Of a stretch of 18,609 bases of DNA, positions 1-12,632 are shown piece by piece. The notes under the pieces are model-generated. The model saw nothing but the letters and a program-made list of their open reading frames with translations. It was not told where the DNA came from and did not search any database. The DNA is from a virus. Taxonomy: Duplodnaviria; Heunggongvirae; Uroviricota; Caudoviricetes. The stretch covers positions 1-18,609 of IMG/VR virus record IMGVR_UViG_2534681878_000012. One strand, 5' to 3'. The translations under genes were made by a program, and so were the position numbers. Numbering within the stretch: the first letter of the stretch is position 1; the number at the start of each line of letters is the position of its first letter.

Positions 1-1055
1 TCTTCTGTTTCCTGCTTAGCAGACAGTTCGCGGTTAACTTCTTCCAGGATATCTTTTTCCGGTGTATGTCGTGCAGCAGTGAGAGTTTCCTTGCTGGGGT
101 TCTCGTGATCAGTCTCCGTTAAGTAGGCGTTGATATACCCCTGAAGGCGTCCCGGGTAGTGATAAAACTCAGGGTGAGCGCTCCGGATAAGTGCAAAAAT
201 AGCGGCGCGGGAATAGTCCAGAATACCCGGGGTTGCGCGAAGTGCTGCGGACCATTCTTTGAACGGACTTTCTCTTTTCAGGACGATTTCTTTTGCGCGA
301 CGATAAACGCTGCCCGGAATTTCATAAATATTAAAATCCATCGGAAGTGTGGCTGCTGCAATCTCCACATCCAGCGTATCGAAGGTGTGTACTAAATTCG
401 GATTGCGATCGGTTTTGTTCCCGCCACCGGCATTTGCACCGGAAGCCGTACGGGTGATACGCGAAACACGATTTCCTTTCATCCACTCTTTTGTCAGCAG
501 ACCCCGATCAGTGTAGTCAGCGTCCAGGTATGCCTCGAAAAAAGCAGTTATCAGTCCCAGGTCTGAATTACCGGGATTAGGGAAAACTTTGTCAGTGTCG
601 CGTACCAGTTTGTGAAGGTCGCGAATCTCCAGCGGGTCGAGCAGCTTTGTTTTGTGAGAAATGGCCAGGGCAGTAACAGCCGGCAGTTCTTCCGCCCGTG
701 CTATATGTAATGCCTGAAGTTCTTCCCGTGCAACGTGCGTTACTGGTTTTTCGCTGCCGTGTTGCGCAAGCCAGCGAATGGGCAGCTCCTGACCAGAAAC
801 CGGCAGGAGCATATTCTCCTCAATCTCCGTCATGTCTTCGCCGTTGACGTTGGTATTGTCAGTACTGGCTGGTTTCTCCTGCACGGAGGGAGAGGGCGCG
901 ATAAATACCATTGTAATGCCATCTTCCCCGCCTTTTTCGTATCGGTTGCAGAATTCGGTATCAAACACGCCTTCAGGTGGAAGGTCATTCACAACGGGTA
1001 AATGGACGCGAACGGGTTTTTTAAAGTCGTCTTCATCATAATCGTTGTCATCCAT
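1..1055 (-). CDS. recE: Exonuclease VIII (RecE)-like protein, N-terminal portion; gene runs off the window start (3' end not in window)
   Basis: Manual minus-strand translation gives an open frame across 1..1118 reading ...VVNDLPPEG...[38 protein letters not shown]...[12 protein letters not shown]...TETDHENP..., closely matching remembered Rac RecE. It is absent from the ORF track because no stop lies in the window. First in-frame ATG is at 1055; an MST... start with a GAGG RBS sits at 1195 in another frame. Confidence 0.6.
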
Positions 1056-1306
1056 TGCGGTAATGCAGCGGGAGATGGCAACAGATAATTTTTTGCTGTA
1101 GTCCAGTAAAAACCACCTTTAATTCCCAGACGTTTTCTGACTTTGTCATTTTTTGCTTCGCAATATAGCGCAAATTCTTCTTTATCAGTGCTCATTGATA
1201 AACCTCATTACAGATTTAAGGGTGAACAAATCCCTGCCATTGCTGGCATTTTTAATCCGTTGGTATGGTGTTAATATGGCTGGAGGGTTATCCAGCCGGT
1301 GTTTCG

Positions 1307-1477
1307 TTATTCAGGTACAGCGATTACTTTTTTTACCGGGAGGCATTCACCAGAAATTTTTTGCTCGTCTCTTGCCTGGAGGCAGGATTCTTTACTGGCA
1401 TAAATTCCGGTAATCACATTCTGTGATTCACCCGTTATAAGAAAAACCGTCATCATCAGTGCAAATGCTGAAGTCAT
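1307..1477 (-). CDS. ydfD: Small protein with hydrophobic N-terminus (56 aa), YdfD-like position downstream of dicB
   Basis: ORF below the track cutoff, found by manual translation: MTSAFALMMTVFLITGESQNVITGIYASKESCLQARDEQKISGECLPVKKVIAVPE. Its ATG overlaps the dicB stop as ATGA, indicating translational coupling. Confidence 0.45.
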   Translation of the reverse strand: MTSAFALMMTVFLITGESQNVITGIYASKESCLQARDEQKISGECLPVKKVIAVPE

Positions 1478-1662
1478 TGACGTTCTCCGAAAATACCAAG
1501 TTCAAGAAGAGCAATTCGGGAAAGTATGGAATTATCATTGAGCAGATAAGGCTCATATTTCCTCATGTTAATGGCATCTTCAGTAAACTCCCGGTTACTG
1601 AGCAGAACACCAATATCAAAACAACCTTCAGACGTATTAACGTTTGGTAATAACGTTTCCAT
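1474..1662 (-). CDS. dicB: DicB-like cell division inhibitor (62 aa)
   Basis: Internal start of track ORF 1474..1767: METLLPNVNTSEGCFDIGVLLSNREFTEDAINMRK... resembles remembered K-12 DicB. GAGG RBS 8 nt upstream; lies directly downstream of DicF as in Qin. Confidence 0.75.
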   Translation of the reverse strand: METLLPNVNTSEGCFDIGVLLSNREFTEDAINMRKYEPYLLNDNSILSRIALLELGIFGERQ

Positions 1663-1831
1663 TATCGCGTCCTCAACAATGAATTTTGTGATGCAGTGCC
1701 TGGTGCCTCCAGGTGACGTTAACCAGTTAACAATTAACGCCGGATACAGAGAATCCACCCATAACACTGTTTTTGGTTTTAACTGTTCCGCGTGCGCTTA
1801 GCCGCATTCACCGCATCACAAAATTCACTTT

Positions 1832-1889
1832 AAAAAGGGCGGCAGAGCAGCCACGGAGTAAAACTGATACCGCCAAACGTCACCAGAAA
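1832..1889 (-). ncRNA. dicF: DicF small regulatory RNA (ftsZ-targeting antisense sRNA of the dicB operon)
   Basis: Minus-strand sequence tttctggtgacgtttggcggtatcagttttactccgtggctgctctgccgcccttttt matches remembered DicF apart from one base, ends in a GC stem plus U-run, and sits between the ydfA-side genes and dicB. Ends are approximate. Confidence 0.8.
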
Positions 1890-2434
1890 ATTGATAACAG
1901 AGGGCGTTGCAGCGGGGTTGTCACTTAAGCGTATGGTCAACCTGACAACCCGGTGTCCTCAATGGGGAAGGAATAACCCCGCCATACTTACCGCCGCGCC
2001 ATTTCGCGGAGTGCCACAACCGGAAGCGCACGTTCGAAGAAATCTAACGACAAGCCTTCTAAGGGAAGAGCTTCGCCGTACGCTTTCGCGTTATGCACTG
2101 ACTTTTCAGGGAAATATCCTTTCAGTAAACTGTCAGTACCGGATTCTTATCCGTGTCCGGCGCACGACCACACGTGACAGCGTGTTGGTCTCCATTTTTA
2201 ACCCAGAACCTCAATGGAGGATAAAATGCCAAACAAAAAAGAAATCCGCTTATTGAAAAACAGATTGAATGCCTGGTAAATCAACTCAGGCAATCAGGGT
2301 TATTAAAAACTCATTCAGAGTTGAGGCTCACAGAATCAGCATTCGACGATAAATTAAATAATGTCCTTTATAATGGCATTATTGATTTTAATCGTTCTGT
2401 TGGTCGCCGCGGCCCTGCTGGTGTTTCCTTATAA

Positions 2435-3073
2435 TTACCAGTCAATCCAGAGTGGACCGTGTTCAGCGTAAATATAACTGTACACATCCAGATTATATTT
2501 GTGGTCTGTTAAGAACAGGCCGCAAATACATGCCGAAGCTTCCAGTGCAGCGGCTCTGTTACTGAATAACCATGTAGCAACATTCCAGCGTTTTTCTGCA
2601 TCCCAGTCTTTCTCAAGGCCTGATACCATGAAGAAACCGTTAGTGTTGCCATCAAATAATTCTGTTTCCAAATTTTTAAGCAATGCCTGATGGACTCTTG
2701 CCAGGTATTCCGCCGGAATTTCGCCACGAATTCTGATGAGATTGTCATAAACAAACATGTTCCCCGCATATGGCGATTTTTCTTTCTTGTTTTTTAAACC
2801 AGCATCATGAGCAAACTGATCAATTTCTTCTTCCGTTGGTTTCGTATTGATGTTTTGCGCTGTCGTTTCTGCAATTTTATTTGCCACACTCTCTGAGTCG
2901 TGTTTATTTATAGACGCACAGAAATACAATCCGGTAAACGCATCGCGCACATTACGAGCCATATTATCAGTGTCTTTTTTCGTTACCGATTCCAATTCAA
3001 GTTCGTTCAGACGATGACGAAGTGTGTGTGCTGCAATCTCCTGGATTGAAGGAGGTAAATCTTTAAATTCCAT
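2435..3073 (-). CDS. Hypothetical soluble protein (212 aa) in the leftward early operon; function unknown
   Basis: Track ORF 2435..3085; preferred start is the second ATG (MEFKDLPPSIQ...) with a GAGG RBS 6 nt upstream. No TM segments or recognisable motifs. Confidence 0.6.
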   Translation of the reverse strand: MEFKDLPPSIQEIAAHTLRHRLNELELESVTKKDTDNMARNVRDAFTGLYFCASINKHDSESVANKIAETTAQNINTKPTEEEIDQFAHDAGLKNKKEKSPYAGNMFVYDNLIRIRGEIPAEYLARVHQALLKNLETELFDGNTNGFFMVSGLEKDWDAEKRWNVATWLFSNRAAALEASACICGLFLTDHKYNLDVYSYIYAEHGPLWIDW

Positions 3074-3084
3074 CGTCAACCTCA

Positions 3085-3237
3085 TCAGTCAGTGTTTCTG
3101 GCTAACCAGCGACGCGCGCCAGCTTCAGTTTTAAACGTTTTGCTTCTGGTATACGTCATCGCGGTAAACGTGCCGTCCTGATTGGGAAACACGCCACATA
3201 CCAGAGATTCGTTGTTGCCAAGATCGATAGTATCCAT
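3085..3237 (-). CDS. ydfA: YdfA-like small protein (50 aa), first gene of the leftward operon
   Basis: Internal start of track ORF 3085..3393: MDTIDLGNNESLVCGVFPNQDGTFTAMTYTRSKTFKTEAGARRWLARNTD. GAGG RBS 5 nt upstream; its stop overlaps the first ATG of the next gene. Confidence 0.55.
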   Translation of the reverse strand: MDTIDLGNNESLVCGVFPNQDGTFTAMTYTRSKTFKTEAGARRWLARNTD

Positions 3238-6176: not shown

Positions 6177-6947
6177 ATGGGAACCGTATTGCATGCACTG
6201 AAAGCGATGGGTAAAGCCAATTCTGTTGAACTGGCGGCGCGGCTTGATATCAGCCGTGAAGAAGTTCTCAACGAACTGTGGGAACTCAAAAAAAATGGCG
6301 TTGTTGATAAAACGGGTCACACCTGGTTTCTGGCTGTCGAAGGCGAATCCGGGGTAACCGAAGGGCAGGCACTACAACCTGAAGCGCCGGATGTGGTAAC
6401 CGAAGAGGTCGCTCCAAAAGTTAGCGCTGACATGATGATTGAGTTTATCGCTCAGGAGGGGGCTAAAACCTGTGAAGAAATAGCGGGTAAGTTCGGTGTC
6501 AGTACTCGCAAGGTTGCTTCCACGCTGGCGGTGGTAACCGCAACGGGGCGGCTGGCACGCGTTAATCAGAACGGTAGATTTCGTTACTGCATGCCGGGCG
6601 ATAATTTACCAGCAGAGCCGAAAGCCGCGCTGGTAACGGAAAATGATGGTAAGGCCTTTCCTCAGCCAGCAGGTGCTGCGTTACCAGTCCGGGAAGCCGC
6701 AACACAGGAAGAAATTAAAACAGAAACTGTGGCGGACATTGTGCAGCCGTTGCCATCGTTTACCGAAACGCAAGCAGATGAGCTGATTTTTCCGTCCCTT
6801 CGCAGGGCAAACCTGGCGCTGCGCAGGGCGAAAAGTGATGTTCAGAAGTGGGAGCGAGTCTGCGCCGCGCTGCGGGAGCTGAACAAGCACCGGGATATTG
6901 TTCGACAGATTACTGATTCTTCCCGCCGTGTTGTATCGGAAAAGTGA
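6177..6947 (+). CDS. Hypothetical protein with two predicted winged-helix-like segments (DUF1627-like, from memory)
   Basis: Internal start MGTVLHALKAMGK... of track ORF 6111..6947 with GGAGG RBS; HTH-like stretches at N-terminus and mid-protein. Confidence 0.55.
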   Translation: MGTVLHALKAMGKANSVELAARLDISREEVLNELWELKKNGVVDKTGHTWFLAVEGESGVTEGQALQPEAPDVVTEEVAPKVSADMMIEFIAQEGAKTCEEIAGKFGVSTRKVASTLAVVTATGRLARVNQNGRFRYCMPGDNLPAEPKAALVTENDGKAFPQPAGAALPVREAATQEEIKTETVADIVQPLPSFTETQADELIFPSLRRANLALRRAKSDVQKWERVCAALRELNKHRDIVRQITDSSRRVVSEK

Positions 6948-6962
6948 TTGCCGGAGGCGCTT

Positions 6963-7355
6963 ATGGCAAAAGTATTTACACCAGAAGAGCGGGAAGAAGT
7001 GAAGGCGCGCATTGTGGAATTCGTGCGCCTGAGCGGACGAGAAACTTTTCGACAACTGGCAGATAAAACGGGTGTCAGTAAGACCGCTATTCGTTGTTTA
7101 TCTGGTGCGCTTGCGGCCAGTGGTGATGTCTGGCTCTCTGGTTGCGGGGTATTTCTATCAGAGCAGGCGTATCGCGTATGGCGCAAGACACCGGAGAAGG
7201 CTGCTGACCCGACACTGATTCGAAAGTTACCTGACGGAGAAATACGTCGTTACAACAGACGGCAGAACATAATTTGTCGTGAGTGCCGCCAGAGCGAAGT
7301 TATGCAGCGTGTGCTGGCGTTCTATCGGGGTAATTTTCAGGAGGTGATGGAGTGA
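6963..7355 (+). CDS. Hypothetical protein (130 aa) with HTH-like segment
   Basis: Internal start MAKVFTPEER... with GGAGG 6 nt upstream (track ORF 6948..7355); stop overlaps the next gene's GTG as GTGA. Confidence 0.55.
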   Translation: MAKVFTPEEREEVKARIVEFVRLSGRETFRQLADKTGVSKTAIRCLSGALAASGDVWLSGCGVFLSEQAYRVWRKTPEKAADPTLIRKLPDGEIRRYNRRQNIICRECRQSEVMQRVLAFYRGNFQEVME

Positions 7356-7648
7356 GGGTGAGAGTTTATATTGCCGGTCCAATGACGGGATATGAAAATT
7401 TCAACCGTGAGGCGTTTCACAAGGCGGAAGAGGAACTGAAACGGGAAGGGCATACCGTCTTAACTCCGGCAGTACTTCCGGACGGGCTGACACAGCCGCA
7501 CTACATGGATATTTGCATGGCAATGATTCGTTGTGTGGATGCGATTTACATGCTGAATGGCTGGCAGCGGTCAGCGGGCGCTAAGGCAGAGCTGGCACTG
7601 GCGGAGAAACTGGGGCATGCGGTGATTTATCAGGAGGTGGCTCGATGA
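7352..7648 (+). CDS. DUF4406 / nucleoside 2-deoxyribosyltransferase-like small protein (98 aa)
   Basis: GTG start; N-terminal VYIAGPMTGYENFNREAFHKAEEEL... is the Rossmann-like signature of the NDT/DNPH1-like fold; stop overlaps the next ATG as ATGA. Confidence 0.6.
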   Translation: MRVRVYIAGPMTGYENFNREAFHKAEEELKREGHTVLTPAVLPDGLTQPHYMDICMAMIRCVDAIYMLNGWQRSAGAKAELALAEKLGHAVIYQEVAR

Positions 7649-8020
7649 GAGAGGTTAACTATGAGGCGCTTCGTGAGGCAGCACAAAACTATCAGTCGAC
7701 GCTGGCGTGGTATCAGGCTACCCCGGACAGCCCAAATGCTGAACGGGATTGTGATGCGGCTCTTGCTGCGTTTAAGCGTCATATCCGTCATCGGGAAGCG
7801 GATATTATCGCTGGTAGCTGGTTTGCTGGATGCGCGGGAAGTTCAATTACCGACTCGCTACGACCTTCGATATGGACACCCGATAAATGCAGATGAGCGA
7901 CATGTCATGATACCTAAAGAAAATGGCAGTTGGCTTTACCTGATTGACCTAGAACACGCATTACGCGTCGCTGGCATTCGCATCAAAGGAGAGGAGCATG
8001 GAAATAAAACCAGAGGATGA
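7645..8020 (+). pseudogene. Ead/Ea22-like gene, copy A, apparently frameshifted and shortened
   Basis: MREVNYEALREAAQ... N-terminus (frame of 7645) shares the Ea22-like motif with copy B; conserved C-terminus ...AGIRIKGEEHGNKTR is in the +1 frame (ends 8020). Frame switch lies near 7810-7830; total span about 125 codons versus 239 in copy B. Confidence 0.5.
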
Positions 8021-8354
8021 GTTAAGCAATATCGTTTTATTTCCGGTAAAAGAGGATGACCCTCGTAATCAGGTTAATTTTCTTTATGAGCCATCGGAAA
8101 GACCATATTGTCATCACGCCTCTGTTCGGGTTGACGAAAAAGAGCGCCAGGTCCGCTGTAAAATCTGCGGTGCGGTTGTGGAGCCGTTTGACTGGATGCT
8201 CTCTGTGGCGAAAAGAGAAACCAGACTGGCAGATGATGTAAGGCTATTGCGCCAGGAGGAACAGGAAAGGCGGAAAAATATAGAAAAGTTAATTCAGATT
8301 GAACGTAACGCGAAAGCGCGGATACGCAGGGCGACAAAATCCAGAACTGAATAA
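7998..8354 (+). CDS. Hypothetical protein with putative zinc ribbon (CHH...CxxC), cassette copy A, 118 aa
   Basis: Track ORF; start lies inside the Ea22-like 3' end; about 95% identical to 9696..10052. Confidence 0.65.
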   Translation: MEIKPEDELSNIVLFPVKEDDPRNQVNFLYEPSERPYCHHASVRVDEKERQVRCKICGAVVEPFDWMLSVAKRETRLADDVRLLRQEEQERRKNIEKLIQIERNAKARIRRATKSRTE

Positions 8355-8404
8355 ATAAATTTAGCGCTGTAAATAAAATCTAATCCTGAACTGGAGGTAT
8401 ATTT

Positions 8405-8617
8405 ATGTTAAATACACAGAAAGCCATTAATGCGGAAAAATATAACGAGTGGGCAAGAAAATTCTCTGAGCAGATTTTTAAAATTACTGGCGATGAGAAT
8501 GCGGCAAAAAATGAATTAGAACCGTGGACACCTGAAGGAAACGCACCAAATTATTGCTGGTGGGAGGTTGATCCGGTTGATGTTGCAAATGAAGCCATGA
8601 GTTACCACAACGATTAA
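8405..8617 (+). CDS. Hypothetical small protein (70 aa), cassette copy A
   Basis: Track ORF with GGAGG RBS; about 88% identical to 10101..10313. Confidence 0.65.
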   Translation: MLNTQKAINAEKYNEWARKFSEQIFKITGDENAAKNELEPWTPEGNAPNYCWWEVDPVDVANEAMSYHND

Positions 8618-8621
8618 TGTC

Positions 8622-8643
8622 AGGAGGCCGCCCGAAAGGGCGG
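8622..8643 (+). promoter_or_regulatory. SD plus GC hairpin with GAAA loop (AGGAGG, CCGCCC-GAAA-GGGCGG) upstream of the 8651 ATG
   Basis: AGGAGG 8622-8627, 6-bp GC stem 8628-8643, ATG at 8651; no U-run, so not a classical terminator. Identical element at 10318-10339. Confidence 0.5.
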
Positions 8644-8650
8644 TAGTTAA

Positions 8651-8833
8651 ATGCGAAAGTTTAAAATAATTATTGAAACGGGAATAGCCGGTGGAGATTT
8701 CGAGGATGAATTCGAAGTGGATGATGATGCGACGCCTGATGAAATACATGACGAAGCAAAAGATATTTTCTTTAACTACTGCAATTATTCATATCACGAA
8801 ATAAAAGACGAAGAGGAAGAACAAAATGGCTGA
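8651..8833 (+). CDS. Small highly acidic protein (60 aa)
   Basis: Track ORF rich in D/E (DFEDEFEVDDDATPDEIHDE...KDEEEEQNG); stop overlaps the next ATG. Confidence 0.55.
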   Translation: MRKFKIIIETGIAGGDFEDEFEVDDDATPDEIHDEAKDIFFNYCNYSYHEIKDEEEEQNG

Positions 8834-9002
8834 TTTTGGTTCAACTAAATACAGCGTCAGTTTTGAAGAATGGCATGAACTGTTAATGGAATATGCAGAG
8901 TTACGTGGTGGCAGTGCTGCTGATGCTGAAGCATGGCGTGATGATTATGAAGCAGGAAAAAATCCGGTCGAAGCATATTGTGATGAGTGGGGCGATGAAT
9001 GA
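8826..9002 (+). CDS. Small acidic protein (58 aa), not in ORF track
   Basis: Manual translation MADFGSTKYSVSFEEWHELLMEYAELRGGSAADAEAWRDDYEAGKNPVEAYCDEWGDE; start overlaps the previous stop and its stop overlaps the Ea22-like B start as ATGA. Confidence 0.5.
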   Translation: MADFGSTKYSVSFEEWHELLMEYAELRGGSAADAEAWRDDYEAGKNPVEAYCDEWGDE

Positions 9003-9718
9003 GCGAGATTGACTATCAGGCGCTGCGTGAAGCAGCAGAGAAAGCAACTAAAGGATGCTACATCGTAGGGCATACATCGGGCAATCAGCATGGGAATATA
9101 ACAGGAGTTTTTGTTTGTCAAAAATGGAAAGGAGAGCCCGGTGGCGTAATTGCAGAATGTCATGTTAACTGCCTGGTTGAAACAGATGCTCAGGCTTACG
9201 CAAACGCTGAATTTATTGCTGCCTTTAATCCAAATGTTGCGCTGGCACTACTGGATGAACGGGAAAGAAACCAGCAATACATCAAATCACGCGACCAGGA
9301 GAACGAGGAGATTGCGCTTACGGAAGGGAAGCTGCTAATCGAAAACGGCCGGCTTGTTGCCGATACGCTACGCCACTTAGCTGATAACGAAATCGACTCT
9401 GATTATTTTGCTATCACCTCAACGAATGAGAACGGTACTGAAATTGATCATGAGATGGCTATTACCGATTACGCACTGCAAGCTGCCGGAACTGTAGACG
9501 AATTGGTTGCGGCGTTGGAATCCGCAGAGAAGCGCATTGCAGAACTGGAAGCACGGGAAATATCGCTCCCAGAACGTAGCAGCATGCTTCATCGAACAGA
9601 TTTTCACGATGATTACCAAACGGTAATGGCATACAAAGTTTCTGAAGTCATCGCTGCAATCCGCGCCGCTGGCATTCGCATCAAAGGAGAGGAGCATGGA
9701 AATAAAACCAGAAGATGA
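8999..9718 (+). CDS. Ead/Ea22-like family protein, copy B (239 aa, intact)
   Basis: N-terminal MSEIDYQALREAAEKA... and C-terminal ...AGIRIKGEEHGNKTRR typical of the family; track ORF. Confidence 0.7.
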   Translation: MSEIDYQALREAAEKATKGCYIVGHTSGNQHGNITGVFVCQKWKGEPGGVIAECHVNCLVETDAQAYANAEFIAAFNPNVALALLDERERNQQYIKSRDQENEEIALTEGKLLIENGRLVADTLRHLADNEIDSDYFAITSTNENGTEIDHEMAITDYALQAAGTVDELVAALESAEKRIAELEAREISLPERSSMLHRTDFHDDYQTVMAYKVSEVIAAIRAAGIRIKGEEHGNKTRR

Positions 9719-10052
9719 GTTAAGCAATATCGTTTTATTTCCGGTAAAAGAGGATGACCCACGTAATCAGGTTAATTTTCTCTATGAGCCATCGGAAAGA
9801 CCATATTGCCATCACGCCTCTGTCCGGGTTGACGAAAAAGAGCGTCAGGTCCGCTGTAAAATCTGCGGTGCAGTTGTGGAGCCATTTGACTGGATGCTCT
9901 CTGTGGCGAAAAGAGAAACCAGACTGGCAGATGATGTAAGGATCTTGCGCCAGGAGGAACGGGAAAGGCGGAGAAATATAGAAAAGCTAATTCAGATTGA
10001 GCGTAACGTGAAAGCGCGGATACGCAGGGTGACAAAATCCAGAACTGAATAA
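9696..10052 (+). CDS. Hypothetical protein with putative zinc ribbon, cassette copy B, 118 aa
   Basis: Paralog of 7998..8354; same overlap with the Ea22-like 3' end. Confidence 0.65.
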   Translation: MEIKPEDELSNIVLFPVKEDDPRNQVNFLYEPSERPYCHHASVRVDEKERQVRCKICGAVVEPFDWMLSVAKRETRLADDVRILRQEERERRRNIEKLIQIERNVKARIRRVTKSRTE

Positions 10053-10100
10053 TTAAATTTAGCTCTGTTAAAAATTTAATCCTTAACCGGAGGTATATCA

Positions 10101-10313
10101 ATGTCAAACGCACAGAAAGTTATTAACGCTGAAAAATATAACGAGTGGGTGAAAAAGTTCTCAGAGCAGATTTTTAAAATTACTGGCGACGAGAATGCGG
10201 CAAAAAATGAATTAGAGCCGTGGACACCTGAAGGTGTCGACCCAAATTATTGCTGGTGGGATGTTGATCCAGTTGATGCTGCAAATGAAGCTATGAGTTA
10301 TCACAACGATTAA
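10101..10313 (+). CDS. Hypothetical small protein (70 aa), cassette copy B
   Basis: Paralog of 8405..8617 with GGAGG RBS. Confidence 0.65.
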   Translation: MSNAQKVINAEKYNEWVKKFSEQIFKITGDENAAKNELEPWTPEGVDPNYCWWDVDPVDAANEAMSYHND

Positions 10314-10317
10314 TGTC

Positions 10318-10339
10318 AGGAGGCCGCCCGAAAGGGCGG
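10318..10339 (+). promoter_or_regulatory. Second copy of the SD plus GAAA-loop hairpin, followed by a 4-codon mini-ORF
   Basis: Same sequence as 8622-8643; ATG at 10342 opens MKSD-stop (10342..10356). Confidence 0.45.
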
Positions 10340-10513
10340 TAATGAAAAGTGACTGAATTAACCAAAGAGAAATTAATCGAAGAAGCCAAATTAAAAATAG
10401 CGATTGCGAAATGCTACCCCAATTCAGGGATGGCACGGGTATAGGGCGAGTTATTCAAAATTGCACTGGCATAGCTGGAAGCAGATCCAGTTAAACGAGT
10501 TAACTCAGATCAG

Positions 10514-11227
10514 ATGCACCGAGTCTGCTTAGAAGCTAATCGCTATTTAGATAAATATGACGCGATGGCGAAAGAGGTAAATAAGTTGCTTGGACGCATC
10601 GCCCCGCCAGCGCCAGTATTTAACGGCGAATACGGTGACGCATATCAGGGCGCTCGTGAAGACCTGTCCATCTGGAAACGGCGAGCGCTTGAAGCTGATG
10701 AGCACGTTCGGCGACTGGAGCAAATCAATGACCACATGGTGAAAGAGGCGCAGGGAGAATCACGCATGGGCGAGCCTGTAATACGTGAGCCAGCACCGGT
10801 AGTGCCTGAAGAAGCAACTCCGGAAAACGTAGAAATGCTCTCTGGCTATGTTTCAACGTACAAATTAACCGATAGCGAGCGCGATATTGCTGCCGAAATA
10901 TGGAACGCCTGCCGCGCCGCCATGCTTCAGGCTGGAAACTTTCGGGAAAATAAGGGTTCGTCAACCAATAATTTTCGGGAAATCTCGGAAACGTCAACCA
11001 ACTATCCGGTAACTCCGGATGGTTGGATAAGCTGTAGTGAGCGAATGCCGGATGATGGTCAGCACGTAATTATTTTATGTGATGGCGCATTCGTTCTTTA
11101 TGCGCAATATCGAGACGGTGAGTTTTTTGATGTAGTCCGTAATGGTGATGAATTTTTCGAAACACAGAGCCGCAATGTAACCGACTGGATGCCGCTACCA
11201 GAACCGCCGCAGGAGGTGCGCCAATGA
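10514..11227 (+). CDS. DUF551-domain protein (Ead/Ea22-associated C-terminal domain), 237 aa as drawn
   Basis: C-terminal ...DGWISCSERMPDDGQHVIILCDGAFVLYAQYRDGEFFDV...WMPLPEPP resembles DUF551. No good RBS at 10514; the upstream same-frame sequence is interrupted by two TAG codons (10442, 10472). Confidence 0.55.
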   Translation: MHRVCLEANRYLDKYDAMAKEVNKLLGRIAPPAPVFNGEYGDAYQGAREDLSIWKRRALEADEHVRRLEQINDHMVKEAQGESRMGEPVIREPAPVVPEEATPENVEMLSGYVSTYKLTDSERDIAAEIWNACRAAMLQAGNFRENKGSSTNNFREISETSTNYPVTPDGWISCSERMPDDGQHVIILCDGAFVLYAQYRDGEFFDVVRNGDEFFETQSRNVTDWMPLPEPPQEVRQ

Positions 11228-11307
11228 TCTGGCCTGAAGCCTTTGCAATTACAGGCGTTGCTATAGCTATTGATTTTTTAGTATATGTTATTTGTCGGTG
11301 GGGGTAA
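11224..11307 (+). CDS. Very small hydrophobic peptide (27 aa), not in track
   Basis: MIWPEAFAITGVAIAIDFLVYVICRWG; ATG overlaps the preceding TGA. Confidence 0.35.
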   Translation: MIWPEAFAITGVAIAIDFLVYVICRWG

Positions 11308-11342
11308 AAACGTTCGCCGGGATTCACACCAAAGGAGGGAAT

Positions 11343-11447
11343 ATGTCGGATGATATTTCACTGGCAATGGAAGGTGCGCTGGCTGTTATTGCTGTTGTGG
11401 GCGTTTACTGCCTGGTTGTGTTTTTGATGGATCGACTAGGGAACTGA
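11343..11447 (+). CDS. Small hydrophobic peptide (34 aa), not in track
   Basis: MSDDISLAMEGALAVIAVVGVYCLVVFLMDRLGN with AAGGAGGG RBS 5 nt upstream. Confidence 0.45.
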   Translation: MSDDISLAMEGALAVIAVVGVYCLVVFLMDRLGN

Positions 11448-11635
11448 ATTCATTACGATATGGGAATTCCCATATCGGGTAAAAACGGTTTGCGGTAAAG
11501 CGAGAGTTAAGTAGAATTGCTGCGGGTGCTTGAGGCTATCTGCCTCGGGCATGAACACCAACGGCAGATAGAGAAAAGCCCCAGTTAACATTACGCGTCC
11601 GGCAAGACGCTTAACATTAATCTGAGGCCATATCT

Positions 11636-11950: not shown

Positions 11951-12268
11951 TCAGGATATTACCTGGATCCCGTTTTTCTCGACAACTGAAAGAAGCCGAA
12001 GAGCTGCACCTCCCGGGCGTTTCACTCCTCGTTCCCAGTCTGATATCAGGTTTTTACTGACGTTGAGGTATCTGGCAAAAACAGGTTGAGACAGATGCTC
12101 TCGTTCTCGCAGTGCACGGATCCTTTCCGGAGACATTACCGGCGCAGGCTGAAGACAAGTTTCATCGAATTCGCGCATAGTTTGTTTTGTGATTGCACCG
12201 ATATCATGGAGTGACTCCATCATTTCATGTACAGATGCAAGTGCATCACTGCGGTAATTTTTACTCAT
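11951..12268 (-). CDS. HTH (XRE-like) antitoxin, HigA-2-like architecture (C-terminal HTH), 105 aa
   Basis: Track ORF; C-terminal ...SQPVFARYLNVSKNLISDWERGVKRP... is HTH-like; lies downstream of and overlaps the toxin by 8 nt. Confidence 0.65.
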   Translation of the reverse strand: MSKNYRSDALASVHEMMESLHDIGAITKQTMREFDETCLQPAPVMSPERIRALREREHLSQPVFARYLNVSKNLISDWERGVKRPGGAALRLLSVVEKNGIQVIS

Positions 12269-12632
12269 TGGGTACCTCCGTGAACTGGCCTTGTTGAATC
12301 AATTGTGCCAGCTGTTCATCAGTAAGATTGAGGACATGGGGAGCGGCTTTTCGAAAAGCATTTTCCTCTATAGCAGTGATATTCTCTCGTTCATTCTTTG
12401 CGTATGCGTAGATGAAAAAGGCTTTTTCTGCAACGCGGTAAAAAATTATTGTCCGGTAACCGCCTGATTTTCCGCCACCACTTCGGGCTAATCTTTGTTT
12501 AATGACACCACTACCCAAATTTGCGGATATGATCCCCTTATCGGCCTGCTCCACGATTTTGCGCAGCGATTTATCGGAAATCCGATGTTTTCGGGCGAAA
12601 CGTTCAAACCAGGCGTTTTTGAAAATTCGCAT
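12261..12632 (-). CDS. RelE/ParE-superfamily toxin, HigB-2-like, 123 aa
   Basis: Motif ...RLARSGGGKSGGYRTIIFYRVAEKAFFIYAYAKNERENI... resembles remembered Vibrio HigB-2; toxin-first order is typical of HigBA modules. Confidence 0.65.
   Translation of the reverse strand: MRIFKNAWFERFARKHRISDKSLRKIVEQADKGIISANLGSGVIKQRLARSGGGKSGGYRTIIFYRVAEKAFFIYAYAKNERENITAIEENAFRKAAPHVLNLTDEQLAQLIQQGQFTEVPNE

Follow-up and report, generated by a model that had tools for sequence, protein, structure and literature searches.

How a prophage comes to carry the same run of small genes twice in succession, and whether that run is a functional unit, are the questions raised by the window analysed here (the whole stretch of 18,609 nt). 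The window is the early-right accessory region, the stretch that separates the replication genes from the nin/Q genes, in a prophage of Rac/lambda-like type from EHEC O145/O157. Our preferred explanation is that two alleles of a shuffled accessory module were placed in tandem by recombination, that the pieces of the module assort independently, that its terminal hairpin serves a split ribosome-binding site and that its small proteins are to be read as described below. We assign this explanation as a whole a probability of roughly 0.75. The tandem arrangement is ordinary, and its only detail of note is a small, conserved RNA hairpin. All genes and elements described are on the + strand.

Extent and identity of the repeat

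The window contains a direct repeat of 688 bp, with copy A at 7958–8645 and copy B at 9656–10341. Each copy consists of a leader, a gene for a 118-aa protein, a spacer, a gene for a 70-aa protein and a hairpin preceded by a Shine-Dalgarno (SD) sequence. The copies are 92% identical overall and are offset by 1698 nt, which a 2-nt indel in the spacer between the two genes reduces to 1696 nt from there on. Similarity begins abruptly about 40 nt before the start codon of the 118-aa gene and ends abruptly 2 nt past the hairpin, such that nucleotide alignment set sharp boundaries on both sides. The 118-aa ORFs (7998–8354 and 9696–10052) are 95.5% identical at the DNA level and encode proteins sharing 113 of 118 residues, whereas the 70-aa ORFs (8405–8617 and 10101–10313) are 88.7% identical and their products share 61 of 70. 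The gap is also apparent in dS, at 0.16 between the 118-aa genes and three-fold higher, 0.49, between the 70-aa genes. The last 31 nt of the repeat, comprising the stop codon, AGGAGG, CCGCCC-GAAA-GGGCGG and TA, contain no differences between the copies, even though they lie beside the gene with a dS of 0.49.

These results bear out the preliminary description in its claims that the two cassettes are paralogous and that each is closed by the same AGGAGG and GAAA-loop hairpin. That description also held that the cassettes were neither an assembly artefact nor a recent duplication, and both points stand. Because the 3.3 kb containing both cassettes recurs with 100% identity in several independently closed O145/O157 genomes, the tandem is not an artefact. 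Near-identical counterparts of each copy exist in single-cassette prophages.

Origin of the tandem arrangement

Comparison with these counterparts indicates that the cassettes are two alleles of one widespread, freely shuffled accessory module of lambda-like E. coli prophages. Positions 7335–9188 match one prophage type (L037/ArgO145) at 99.8–100%; copy A with its right flank (7970–9265) is 99.8% identical to Stx phage ArgO145, and L037 is 99.8% identical over 7826–9265 and has no mismatch over 7335–7809. On the other side, 8998–11400 matches a single-cassette prophage (L004; strain 95-3192) at 99.6%, and the 118-aa and 70-aa proteins of copy B have the same RefSeq protein accessions in the single-cassette prophage of strain 95-3192. 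Mismatch maps placed the change from one type to the other. The L037 type had no mismatches up to 9188, whereas the L004 type had 8 mismatches in 9004–9163 and then only 1 in 9164–11400. The interval holding the joint is thus 9164–9188, which lies inside the shared N-terminal domain region of the second Ea22-like gene (8999–9718).

These alignments show that the alleles were set in tandem by one homologous crossover, in which non-allelic Ea22-like genes of two related lambdoid genomes recombined. One parent had the order DUF4406, short Ea22-like gene, 118A, 70A, DUF7167, 58-aa gene, Ea22', and the other the order DUF4406, Ea22, 118B, 70B, DUF551; crossing over at 9164–9188 joined the first parent, on the left, to the second, on the right, and produced the tandem. 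As is seen for lambdoid mosaics, each of the parental arrangements can be identified and the joint falls in sequence that the two have in common. A parent identical over the whole left flank was not found, L037 being only 93% identical over 6523–7841, though identical from 7335; more than one exchange may therefore have taken place.

We also considered an old duplication in situ of a unit of ~1.7 kb (Ea22-like, 118-aa and 70-aa genes) whose copies subsequently diverged in place. The copies do lie head to tail at a regular spacing of 1696–1698 nt, and an Ea22-like ORF precedes each. However, this history is already contradicted by the finding that the copies are not each other's closest relatives (92% identity, compared with 99.6–99.8% between each copy with its own flanks and a counterpart in single-cassette context elsewhere). 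Moreover, the 1.0 kb between the copies, containing the DUF7167 gene, the 58-aa gene and the 5' portion of Ea22, is single-copy in the window, the dS of the two gene pairs is three-fold unequal, and no more than 12 of the 5426 complete E. coli genomes carry the tandem. We consider duplication in situ highly improbable. About 137 other genomes match at least 80% of the 3.3-kb query, and most of them have the same backbone with a single cassette.

The closest known process is the mosaic evolution of lambdoid phages by homologous or homeologous recombination between phages and resident prophages (PMC2327257, PMC3945230), and 'full or partial gene duplication' has been noted in the exo-xis regions of Stx phages (PMC8614690). 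Nothing essential differs in the present case. The joint falls in homology shared by paralogous Ea22-like genes, module boundaries lie at gene starts, and the O145/O157 host lineage carries several lambdoid prophages; the outcome here is an allele tandem via exchange between non-allelic Ea22 paralogues.

The upstream ORFs and the leader of the 118-aa gene

The preliminary description placed the start of each 118-aa gene inside the 3' end of an Ea22-like gene. A 23-nt overlap with the upstream ORF was found in both copies, but the first of the two upstream genes (7645–8020) is a pseudogene. Alignment to the intact 153-aa gene of the near-identical prophage L037 showed that 86 nt are missing near 7817, which shifts the reading frame, and RefSeq lists the gene as 'frameshifted'. 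Its N-terminal fragment (7645–7896) matches PF13935 only weakly (E=5.5e-4; 20.9 bits, under the cutoff of 27), and its last ~60 nt lie in copy A. In contrast, the second gene is intact, encodes 239 aa and is clearly Ead/Ea22-like (PF13935, E=8e-34; 117.6 bits compared with the cutoff of 27).

In both copies the upstream ORF ends in AGIRIKGEEHGNKTR(G/R). Among 58 different upstream ORFs nearly all share this 16-residue C-terminal end, and these ORFs include short fragments, one DUF551-type C-terminus and remnants of 33–47 aa. Because such varied ORFs share the tail, the overlap belongs to the leader of the 118-aa gene rather than to Ea22; judged from these sequences, the AGIRIKGEEHGNKTR(G/R) tail is the ~40-nt leader read in another frame.

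In lambda, ea22 was reported to be pro-lysogenic (PMC7093339, PMC10834534), and ea8.5 comes after ea22 in the gene order (PMC8614690). The 239-aa protein resembles lambda Ea22 in that a predicted coiled coil follows its PF13935 N-terminal domain, and here, too, a small ORF of zinc-binding type comes next. Unlike in lambda, the genes described here come after the replication genes and not between exo and xis, and the C-terminal part of the Ea22-like protein differs, its shared tail coming from the leader of the gene that follows. No similarity of the 118-aa protein to lambda Ea8.5 was detectable.

Independent assortment of the module pieces

Pieces of the module were found in 3486 of 5426 complete E. 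coli genomes, or about two thirds. Linkage among the pieces was assessed in IMG/VR samples of 80–120 listed loci, which are redundant with many near-identical prophages, such that the fractions are rough. Among the loci listed, a 70-aa gene followed the 118-aa gene in 25 of 79 cases (about one third), 70-aa genes had a 118-aa gene upstream in 35 of 78 cases and lacked one in 43, and 42 of 114 hairpins followed neither gene. Thus the trio did not co-occur in most carriers (25/79, 35/78 and 12/114), and distant homologues of both proteins are located in unrelated neighborhoods. In the form of the module that lacks the 70-aa gene, a 23-nt spacer replaces this ORF, while 70-aa genes without a 118-aa gene upstream still keep the last ~18 nt of the 118-aa gene.

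From these comparisons the module consists of the 118 leader, the gene for the 118-aa protein with its putative zinc ribbon, a 70-aa gene that may be absent, and the SD-hairpin, and these pieces assort independently across prophages. The exchange boundaries lie at two short conserved translation-initiation regions, the ~40-nt 118 leader and the 31-nt SD-hairpin. The earlier proposal of a modular unit kept in two versions is not supported by this survey. The two versions are the alleles of two phage lineages joined at 9164–9188, the trio is not conserved, its distant homologues are unlinked, and the two gene pairs differ in dS as described above; what the prophages contain is largely common independent morons without linkage.

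A related possibility is that the Ea22-like, 118-aa and 70-aa proteins form a co-adapted system, for example as interacting partners or in a toxin/antidote-like relationship, and that two specificity variants benefit the phage. The listed cases in which the 118-aa and 70-aa genes are adjacent are consistent with such a system, as are the overlap of the 118 start with the upstream ORF, which would permit translational coupling, and the purifying selection on both genes. In addition, a 33%-identical homologue of the 118-aa protein in Enterobacter phage Tyrion also overlaps an Ead/Ea22-like gene. However, most listed 118-aa genes lack the 70-aa gene and more than half of the listed 70-aa genes lack the 118-aa gene. 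The 118 family spans the Enterobacterales while the 70-aa family is essentially confined to Escherichia and Shigella, distant 118 homologues come after NinG or unrelated ORFs, and distant 70 homologues have no 118 neighbor. Furthermore, many of the upstream ORFs are remnants or are not Ea22-like, that of copy A is a pseudogene, and PADLOC gave no significant defense-system match for six proteins of the region. Co-adaptation is thus an unlikely explanation, and we favor independent assortment.

The small proteins

Both the 118-aa and the 70-aa genes are real coding genes under purifying selection, with a dN/dS of about 0.11–0.13. The copy A products belong to phrog_1621 (118-aa protein; E=1.5e-56) and phrog_4659 (70-aa protein; E=8e-51), and the copy B products were identified by PHROGs matches and alignment to copy A. 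Between the cassettes are a 60-aa DUF7167 gene (8651–8833; phrog_1997; PF23768, E=7.9e-15) and the 58-aa gene (8826–9002; phrog_519, PHROGs match). The matches to all four PHROG families are full-length and highly significant, but these families lack an assigned function, so that membership provides a name and not a mechanism. As the preliminary description stated, no family of known function was matched by the small proteins in Pfam, PHROGs, NCBIfam, PADLOC or fold searches.

The 118-aa protein has an acidic N-terminus, a putative CxH...CxxC zinc ribbon and a 55-residue basic helix. Residues C38, H40, C54 and C57 do not vary among 24 diverse homologues, and the helix NIEKLIQIERNAKARIR is also invariant across Enterobacterales. 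The AlphaFold2 model of the copy A protein (pLDDT 76) contains beta-hairpins at 43–61. Its best Foldseek match is TFIIB, with an E-value of only 0.25, and the match to Zn_Ribbon_TF (PF08271) is 21.5 bits, below the cutoff of 29. These features tentatively suggest a dimeric protein with a zinc ribbon and a basic coiled coil, whose binding target early in infection may be nucleic acid or some conserved component of the host. The product of the 70-aa gene is a small three-helix protein (copy A model: pLDDT 83, pTM 0.73) and may be an independent helical accessory protein.

The hairpin as part of a probable split ribosome-binding site

In copy A the hairpin element (8622–8644) consists of AGGAGG at 8622–8627 and a stem-loop at 8628–8643, with an extra G8627-U8644 pair, and the next start codon is the ATG at 8651, that of the DUF7167 gene, which the element is predicted to serve. 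In copy B (10318–10340) AGGAGG is at 10318–10323, the stem-loop is at 10324–10339 and the next start codon is the GTG at 10349, 9 nt after the stem. This GTG opens a 31-codon ORF (10349–10444) that comparison with relatives identified as the truncated 5' end of a VTELTKEK... gene, intact (277 aa) in those relatives; the ORF is in frame with the DUF551 CDS on the right (10514–11227; PF04448, E=5e-21), but two in-frame stop codons interrupt. The left neighbor, a DUF4406 gene (7352–7648; PF14359, E=2.3e-37; also annotated in RefSeq), is outside the repeat.

The hairpin motif occurs at only these two places in the window, compared with 0.01 matches expected by chance. Its fold energy is −15.5 kcal/mol, and AGGAG and AUG stay unpaired. 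Natural variants include three types that keep pairing via G-U and four that lose a pair; the loop reads GAAA or, in one variant, GAGA (both GNRA), and no compensatory double changes were found. An intrinsic terminator was considered and rejected, as the tail is TAGTTAAATG (A) or TAATGAAAAG (B), with no T-run, and a terminator scan made no call. Rfam gave no match at E≤1 in 7000–11500, and only chance-level matches (E≥1) for the 70-less form.

The distance from the SD sequence to the start codon is 23 nt in A and 25 nt in B, beyond the ~15 nt at which an SD sequence would be too far away, and no nearer SD sequence is present; skipping the 16-nt hairpin leaves an effective spacing of 7 and 9 nt, within the range of ~5–11 nt. 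The SD:anti-SD duplex is predicted at −10.3 kcal/mol, whereas the spacers after the stem do not pair (+0.4 and +1.0). Downstream genes of six or more unrelated families start 6–9 nt past the stem among 123 hairpin instances, nearly all of which have this effective spacing, with one at 2 nt. Homologues of the DUF7167 gene that lack the hairpin (Klebsiella phage) have GGAGG or GGGAG 8–9 nt before the ATG. This distance equals the spacing obtained here when the 16-nt hairpin is skipped, which supports a split SD site.

The hairpin thus probably bridges a split ribosome-binding site like those of T4 genes 38 and 25 (Nivinskas et al. 1999; Malys and Nivinskas 2009; reviewed in PMC3014915). A strong AGGAGG stands directly 5' of a stable GNRA-loop hairpin, with the start codon of the next gene 6–9 nt 3' of the stem, and folding would bring the SD sequence and the start codon to a working distance. 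In T4, hairpin formation shortens the gap to the start codon from 22 to 5 nt for gene 38 and from 27 to 11 nt for gene 25 (PMC3014915). The likeness lies in an SD sequence too distant from the start codon, no alternative SD sequence and a stable hairpin that would shorten the effective spacing to 6–9 nt. In contrast to T4, the element here is in a temperate lambdoid context, shows no covariation, and has a minimal GC stem of 6–7 bp with a GNRA tetraloop directly abutting the SD sequence. It also precedes at least six unrelated genes, behaving as a portable junction.

Stable GNRA hairpins between cistrons commonly serve as decay barriers. The GC hairpin could accordingly be an mRNA stabilizer or processing signal (a barrier to 3'-exonucleases or, once the RNA is cleaved, a protective 5' stem), or an occluder that represses the downstream gene. 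Its intercistronic position, 10 nt after the 70-aa stop codon, would suit a stabilizer. If the hairpin opened, the loop and 3' arm (AAGGGCGG) might serve as a weak SD sequence (−8.2 kcal/mol with a bulge), and the effect of the hairpin on translation would then be repression instead of promotion; in the 70-less form, which has a conserved core of ~63 nt, the consensus fold has a conserved TCCT paired to AGGA within the SD sequence. However, a stabilizer has no need of AGGAGG abutting the stem, nor of start codons of six or more unrelated families 6–9 nt past it with no other SD sequence, and hairpin-less homologues have their SD sequence at exactly the hairpin-skipped distance. We regard these roles as unlikely, though less so than co-adaptation of the proteins, and prefer the split SD site.

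A possible portable junction

The 16-bp palindrome could instead act on DNA, either by binding a dimeric protein or as a hotspot at which recombination generates the boundaries of the module. This perfect inverted repeat falls exactly at the mosaic boundary and is common to many differing junctions. However, the GNRA loop (GAAA or GAGA), the strand-specific AGGAGG and the fixed distance to the start codon point to a function at the RNA level, and any conserved stretch of 30–60 nt suffices for homologous exchange without being a dedicated site. A dedicated DNA site is very unlikely. DNA-level and RNA-level roles of the element are not mutually exclusive.

Returning to the split SD site, the SD-hairpin could express any gene recombined in behind it. 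We tentatively suggest that the ~31-nt AGGAGG and GNRA-hairpin may be a portable junction, acting as a split ribosome-binding site on RNA and as a short homology for swapping on DNA. If so, this could explain why at least five kinds of upstream neighbor and six kinds of downstream neighbor adjoin it, and why roughly two thirds of the complete E. coli genomes contain pieces of the module.

The tandem cassettes and their surroundings

The window belongs to a Rac/lambda-like prophage of EHEC, and the 3.3 kb around the repeats is 100% identical to prophages in closed O145 and O157 chromosomes. According to RefSeq annotation, the plus-strand gene order is dicC, a ydaT-like gene, replication genes, DUF1627, DUF977, DUF4406, the repeat region, DUF551, hokD, DUF968, rusA and Q. 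Thus, the cassettes sit in the early-right accessory region rather than between exo and xis. Beside hokD, the RefSeq annotation of the identical locus places a RelE/ParE-family toxin gene and an HTH antitoxin-like gene on the minus strand (11951–12632). We also observed a 33-nt tandem direct repeat (10937–11001, 75% identical) inside the DUF551 gene, which encodes NFRENKGSSTN and NFREISETSTN.

Nucleotide alignment was carried out to define the repeat boundaries. An extended direct repeat, well beyond short motifs, was found at 7958–8645 (copy A) and 9656–10341 (copy B), with an offset of 1698 nt that later becomes 1696 nt. Similarity stops sharply about 40 nt upstream of the start codon for the 118-aa protein (118) and 2 nt past the hairpin. 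The 118 genes (7998–8354 and 9696–10052) encode proteins that are identical at 113 of 118 residues, and the genes for the 70-aa protein (70; 8405–8617 and 10101–10313) encode proteins identical at 61 of 70. The final 31 nt, consisting of the stop codon, AGGAGG, CCGCCC-GAAA-GGGCGG and TA, are the same in both copies. These results bear out the preliminary description of two paralogous cassettes with a shared AGGAGG-hairpin end. The dN/dS ratios of the two small genes (0.11 and 0.13) indicate purifying selection. However, dS between the copies was 0.16 for the 118 pair and 0.49 for the 70 pair, a three-fold difference indicating that the proposed unit does not have a single history.

Origin of the tandem

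Relatives with one cassette matched each half of the arrangement. Stx phage ArgO145, whose single cassette is in the exo-xis region, is 99.8% identical to window positions 7970–9265, a segment that runs from 118A through 70A and the DUF7167 and 58-aa genes into the second Ea22-like gene, of which it takes in the first 267 nt. The left context of L037, an IMG/VR prophage, is that of the window (DUF4406, short Ea22-like gene, 118A, 70A, DUF7167, 58-aa gene, Ea22'), and the two are identical over 7335–9188 except for an 86-nt stretch that is absent from the window. L004, a sister prophage in O145:H28 strains, contains one cassette in the order DUF4406, Ea22, 118B, 70B and DUF551; its proteins have the same RefSeq accessions as the copy B proteins, and it is 99.6% identical to 8998–11400. 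Mapping of mismatches to L004 revealed 8 differences in 9004–9163 and 1 in 9164–11400, whereas L037 and ArgO145 showed 0 differences up to 9188 and divergence beyond. A single crossover at 9164–9188 therefore accounts for the arrangement. The crossover would have paired the second of the two Ea22-like genes in an L037-type genome with the only one in an L004-type genome. Lambdoid phages are well known to recombine across diverged sequences and with resident prophages (PMC2327257, PMC3945230). The near-identical single-cassette parents, together with the closed O145 and O157 genomes, uphold the earlier view that the tandem is neither a recent duplication nor an assembly artefact.

The tandem, scored as at least 80% coverage of the 70A-to-118B span, was present in 12 of 5426 complete genomes, while pieces of it occurred in 3486, at a median of two places per genome. 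At least 80% of the 3.3-kb query was matched in 149 genomes; among the matches listed, the non-tandem genomes carried the same prophage backbone with one cassette (81% coverage). On these sequence comparisons, the tandem is best described as a rare recombinant of ubiquitous, individually mobile lambdoid accessory genes, and hence as ordinary biology. A different partial tandem was seen in four IMG/VR prophages (L189, L205, L237 and L245), in which two hairpins lie ~1064 nt apart in the order 70, hairpin, 72-aa gene, shared-tail ORF, 118, hairpin and DUF7167. The window is thus not the only case in which one genome uses the junction element more than once.

Linkage of the cassette genes

The cassette had been proposed to be a modular unit kept in two versions. 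We surveyed other prophages for the trio of Ea22-like, 118 and 70 genes; the samples were redundant and limited in number of loci, and all linkage fractions are approximate. Among the best 80 IMG/VR loci, 118 was followed by 70 in 25 instances, versus 54 in which 118 led through the hairpin to the next gene without 70. In this 70-less form, a 23-nt spacer, GATTTCTGCACCCTCAGAACATC, occupies the exact site of the 70-aa ORF. An upstream 118 gene was lacking for 43 of 78 genes encoding 70; a 118 3′ end of ~18 nt persists at these loci, indicating that 118 was replaced. When the upstream context of the hairpin could be evaluated (n = 114), it consisted of 118 then 70 in 12 cases, 70 without 118 in 21, 118 directly in 39 and neither gene in 42. 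This mostly unlinked occurrence, the unequal dS values and the one crossover do not support the modular unit; as far as sequence comparison goes, the trio is not a fixed unit.

The 118 family extends across Enterobacterales; homologues in Klebsiella, Serratia, Yersinia and Erwinia are as little as ~45% identical. The gene 5′ of distant 118 homologues is Ead/Ea22-like in phage Tyrion, NinG in a Klebsiella phage, and an unrelated ORF in Serratia phage Parlo and a Hafnia phage. ORFs overlapping 118 from upstream in Kluyvera, Erwinia, Photorhabdus and Pantoea genomes are also unrelated to those of E. coli. The 70 family is essentially limited to Escherichia and Shigella, plus two remote small homologues (P0244 and P0245), the true ones recovered in an exhaustive HMMER search; neither a 118 neighbour nor the hairpin was present beside them. 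Two giant repetitive proteins from that search were judged spurious, since their scores accumulate from numerous weak alignments to acidic repeats.

The 3′ end of the 70 gene and the hairpin were also found on ~93–100-kb non-mobilizable E. coli plasmids (H112–H119), which may be phage-plasmids, and an Ea22-like segment matched the 115-kb record of phage RCS47 (H15/H16). Module sequence with 93–98% identity in records from unrelated hosts (L009, a Collinsella MAG contig; L013, a 233-nt Ursidibacter contig; H17/H130, Actinobacillus phage vB_Apl-pPE4) likely reflects contamination or mis-binning.

The 118 leader and the Ea22-like genes

Each 118 gene had been described as starting inside the 3′ end of an Ea22-like gene (7645–8020 and 8999–9718). 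The overlap was confirmed, but the tie to Ea22 was not. Nearly all ORFs overlapping the 118 start in the E. coli-type loci sampled end in AGIRIKGEEHGNKTR(G/R), and their bodies comprise 58 different sequences, including several Ea22-like kinds, one with a DUF551-type C-terminus and remnants of 33–47 codons. Occurrence of the same tail on 58 different bodies indicates that it is the ~40-nt leader of the 118 gene read in another frame. This leader, which holds the gene's own SD sequence (GGAGAGGAG) and its first codons, also forms the left exchange boundary of the module. Annotation and domain analyses of Ea22 are affected, as the common tail of many 'Ea22-like' ORFs is the leader of the next gene.

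Compared with the intact 153-aa gene of L037, the first Ea22-like gene has an 86-nt deletion at ~7810–7841, between short GCTGG...CTGGATG repeats. The resulting frameshift makes it a pseudogene. An explanation by programmed frameshifting or by a natural Ea22::118 fusion was considered and rejected. Fusions in relatives, in which 118 is joined in-frame to Ea22-like, DUF1133 or DUF977 sequences (P0002, P0042, P0015 and P0040), are sporadic and appear to be deletion products, illustrating how recombination-prone the region is.

Predicted features of the small proteins

The acidic N-terminus of the 118 protein contains a conserved motif (consensus TETExELSNVVxFP), and C38, H40, C54 and C57 are invariant in the homologue alignment. 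In the AlphaFold2 model of 118 (pLDDT 76), beta structure resembling a zinc ribbon leads into one helix of 55 residues; the prediction for 70 is a small protein of three helices (pLDDT 83). Foldseek with the 118 model returned only TFIIB-type ribbons (E≥0.25), and structural neighbours of the 70 model were uninformative. As described previously, the proteins lack a known function: Pfam and PHROGs gave unknown-function families only, and NCBIfam and PADLOC gave no matches. The basic helix of 118, NIEKLIQIERNAKARIR, hardly changes from Escherichia through to Yersinia and Serratia. From this conservation and the modelled architecture, we would guess that 118 acts as a dimer, combining a zinc ribbon with a coiled coil, and that its ligand is nucleic acid or a conserved host target. 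Conservation of the helix across genera makes 118 a reasonable target in a host-partner search.

A candidate split Shine-Dalgarno site

In copy A, the plus-strand AGGAGG (8622–8627) directly abuts a hairpin (8628–8643) with a 6-bp GC stem, a GAAA loop and an additional G-U pair. The SD sequence is 23 nt from the DUF7167 ATG (8651), a distance that drops to 7 nt once the hairpin is left out; the corresponding values for the copy B GTG (10349) are 25 and 9 nt. Anti-SD pairing of the upstream AGGAGG (−10.3 kcal/mol) was on par with the ordinary ribosome binding site of the 70 gene (−10.6 kcal/mol), whereas the short post-hairpin spacers did not pair (+1.0 and +0.4 kcal/mol). Across 123 instances, the hairpin precedes at least six unrelated gene families, among them DUF7167, 72-aa MTTLFRKE/MKHYLEKN proteins, M(T/A)ELTKEQ proteins of 92–277 aa (some with a DUF551 C-terminus) and MQEIKENI proteins, and start codons lie 6–9 nt past the stem with a single exception at 2 nt. 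Klebsiella-phage DUF7167 homologues have no hairpin and instead have GGAGG or GGGAG 8–9 nt 5′ of the ATG. The arrangement in E. coli therefore resembles a standard ribosome binding site into which a 16-nt hairpin was inserted.

This anatomy matches the split ribosome binding sites of T4 genes 38 and 25, where efficient initiation requires a hairpin that brings the spacing down from 22 to 5 nt and from 27 to 11 nt, respectively (PMC3014915). Our best reading is that the hairpin forms part of a split SD site, with a probability of roughly 0.5–0.6, and it is plausibly a new example of a known translational device. Alternatively, the hairpin may stabilise the mRNA or act as an occluding structure. 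The hairpin A fold is −15.5 kcal/mol, with AGGAG and the next start codon predicted to be unpaired; in the consensus fold of the 70-less element, a conserved TCCT is predicted to pair with AGGA of the SD sequence. As for an intrinsic terminator, no T run follows the stem, the hairpin is not among the terminator-scan calls, and terminator and promoter counts were not above shuffles.

The 70-less element (L036 3357–3450 plus 51 further sequence variants at related loci) has an almost invariant core of ~63 nt, AATCCTTAACCGGAGGGATTTCTGCACCCTCAGAACATCAGGAGGCCGCCCGAAAGGGCGGTA, which contains a second small hairpin (GAGGG...CCCTC) and was found behind at least five different upstream genes. Neither the window region nor this element matched Rfam. 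Three types of natural hairpin variant retain pairing via G-U and four break one pair; no compensatory pairs were detected among hairpin variants or in the 70-less intergenic core, and an apparent GAGTG/CACTC compensation was rejected as a register shift. Disruption was seen in the gene downstream of hairpin B: the frame opened by GTG 10349 runs into the DUF551 CDS (10514–11227; RefSeq start ATG 10514) but contains two in-frame stops (a TAG at 10442–10444 and another stop at 10475–10477), where intact relatives read VEGELFKIALASLEA.

Significance

The earlier reading of the cassettes is right only in part, although the observation itself is confirmed. The tandem carries little weight, being textbook lambdoid mosaicism in a host with many related prophages; it is useful mainly as an example that is clean and datable, its crossover being confined to 25 nt. 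The candidate split SD site is widespread in E. coli prophages and easily tested. If the reading is true, it would carry a mechanism known from T4 over to temperate phages, and the hairpin could provide a compact translation-initiation part.
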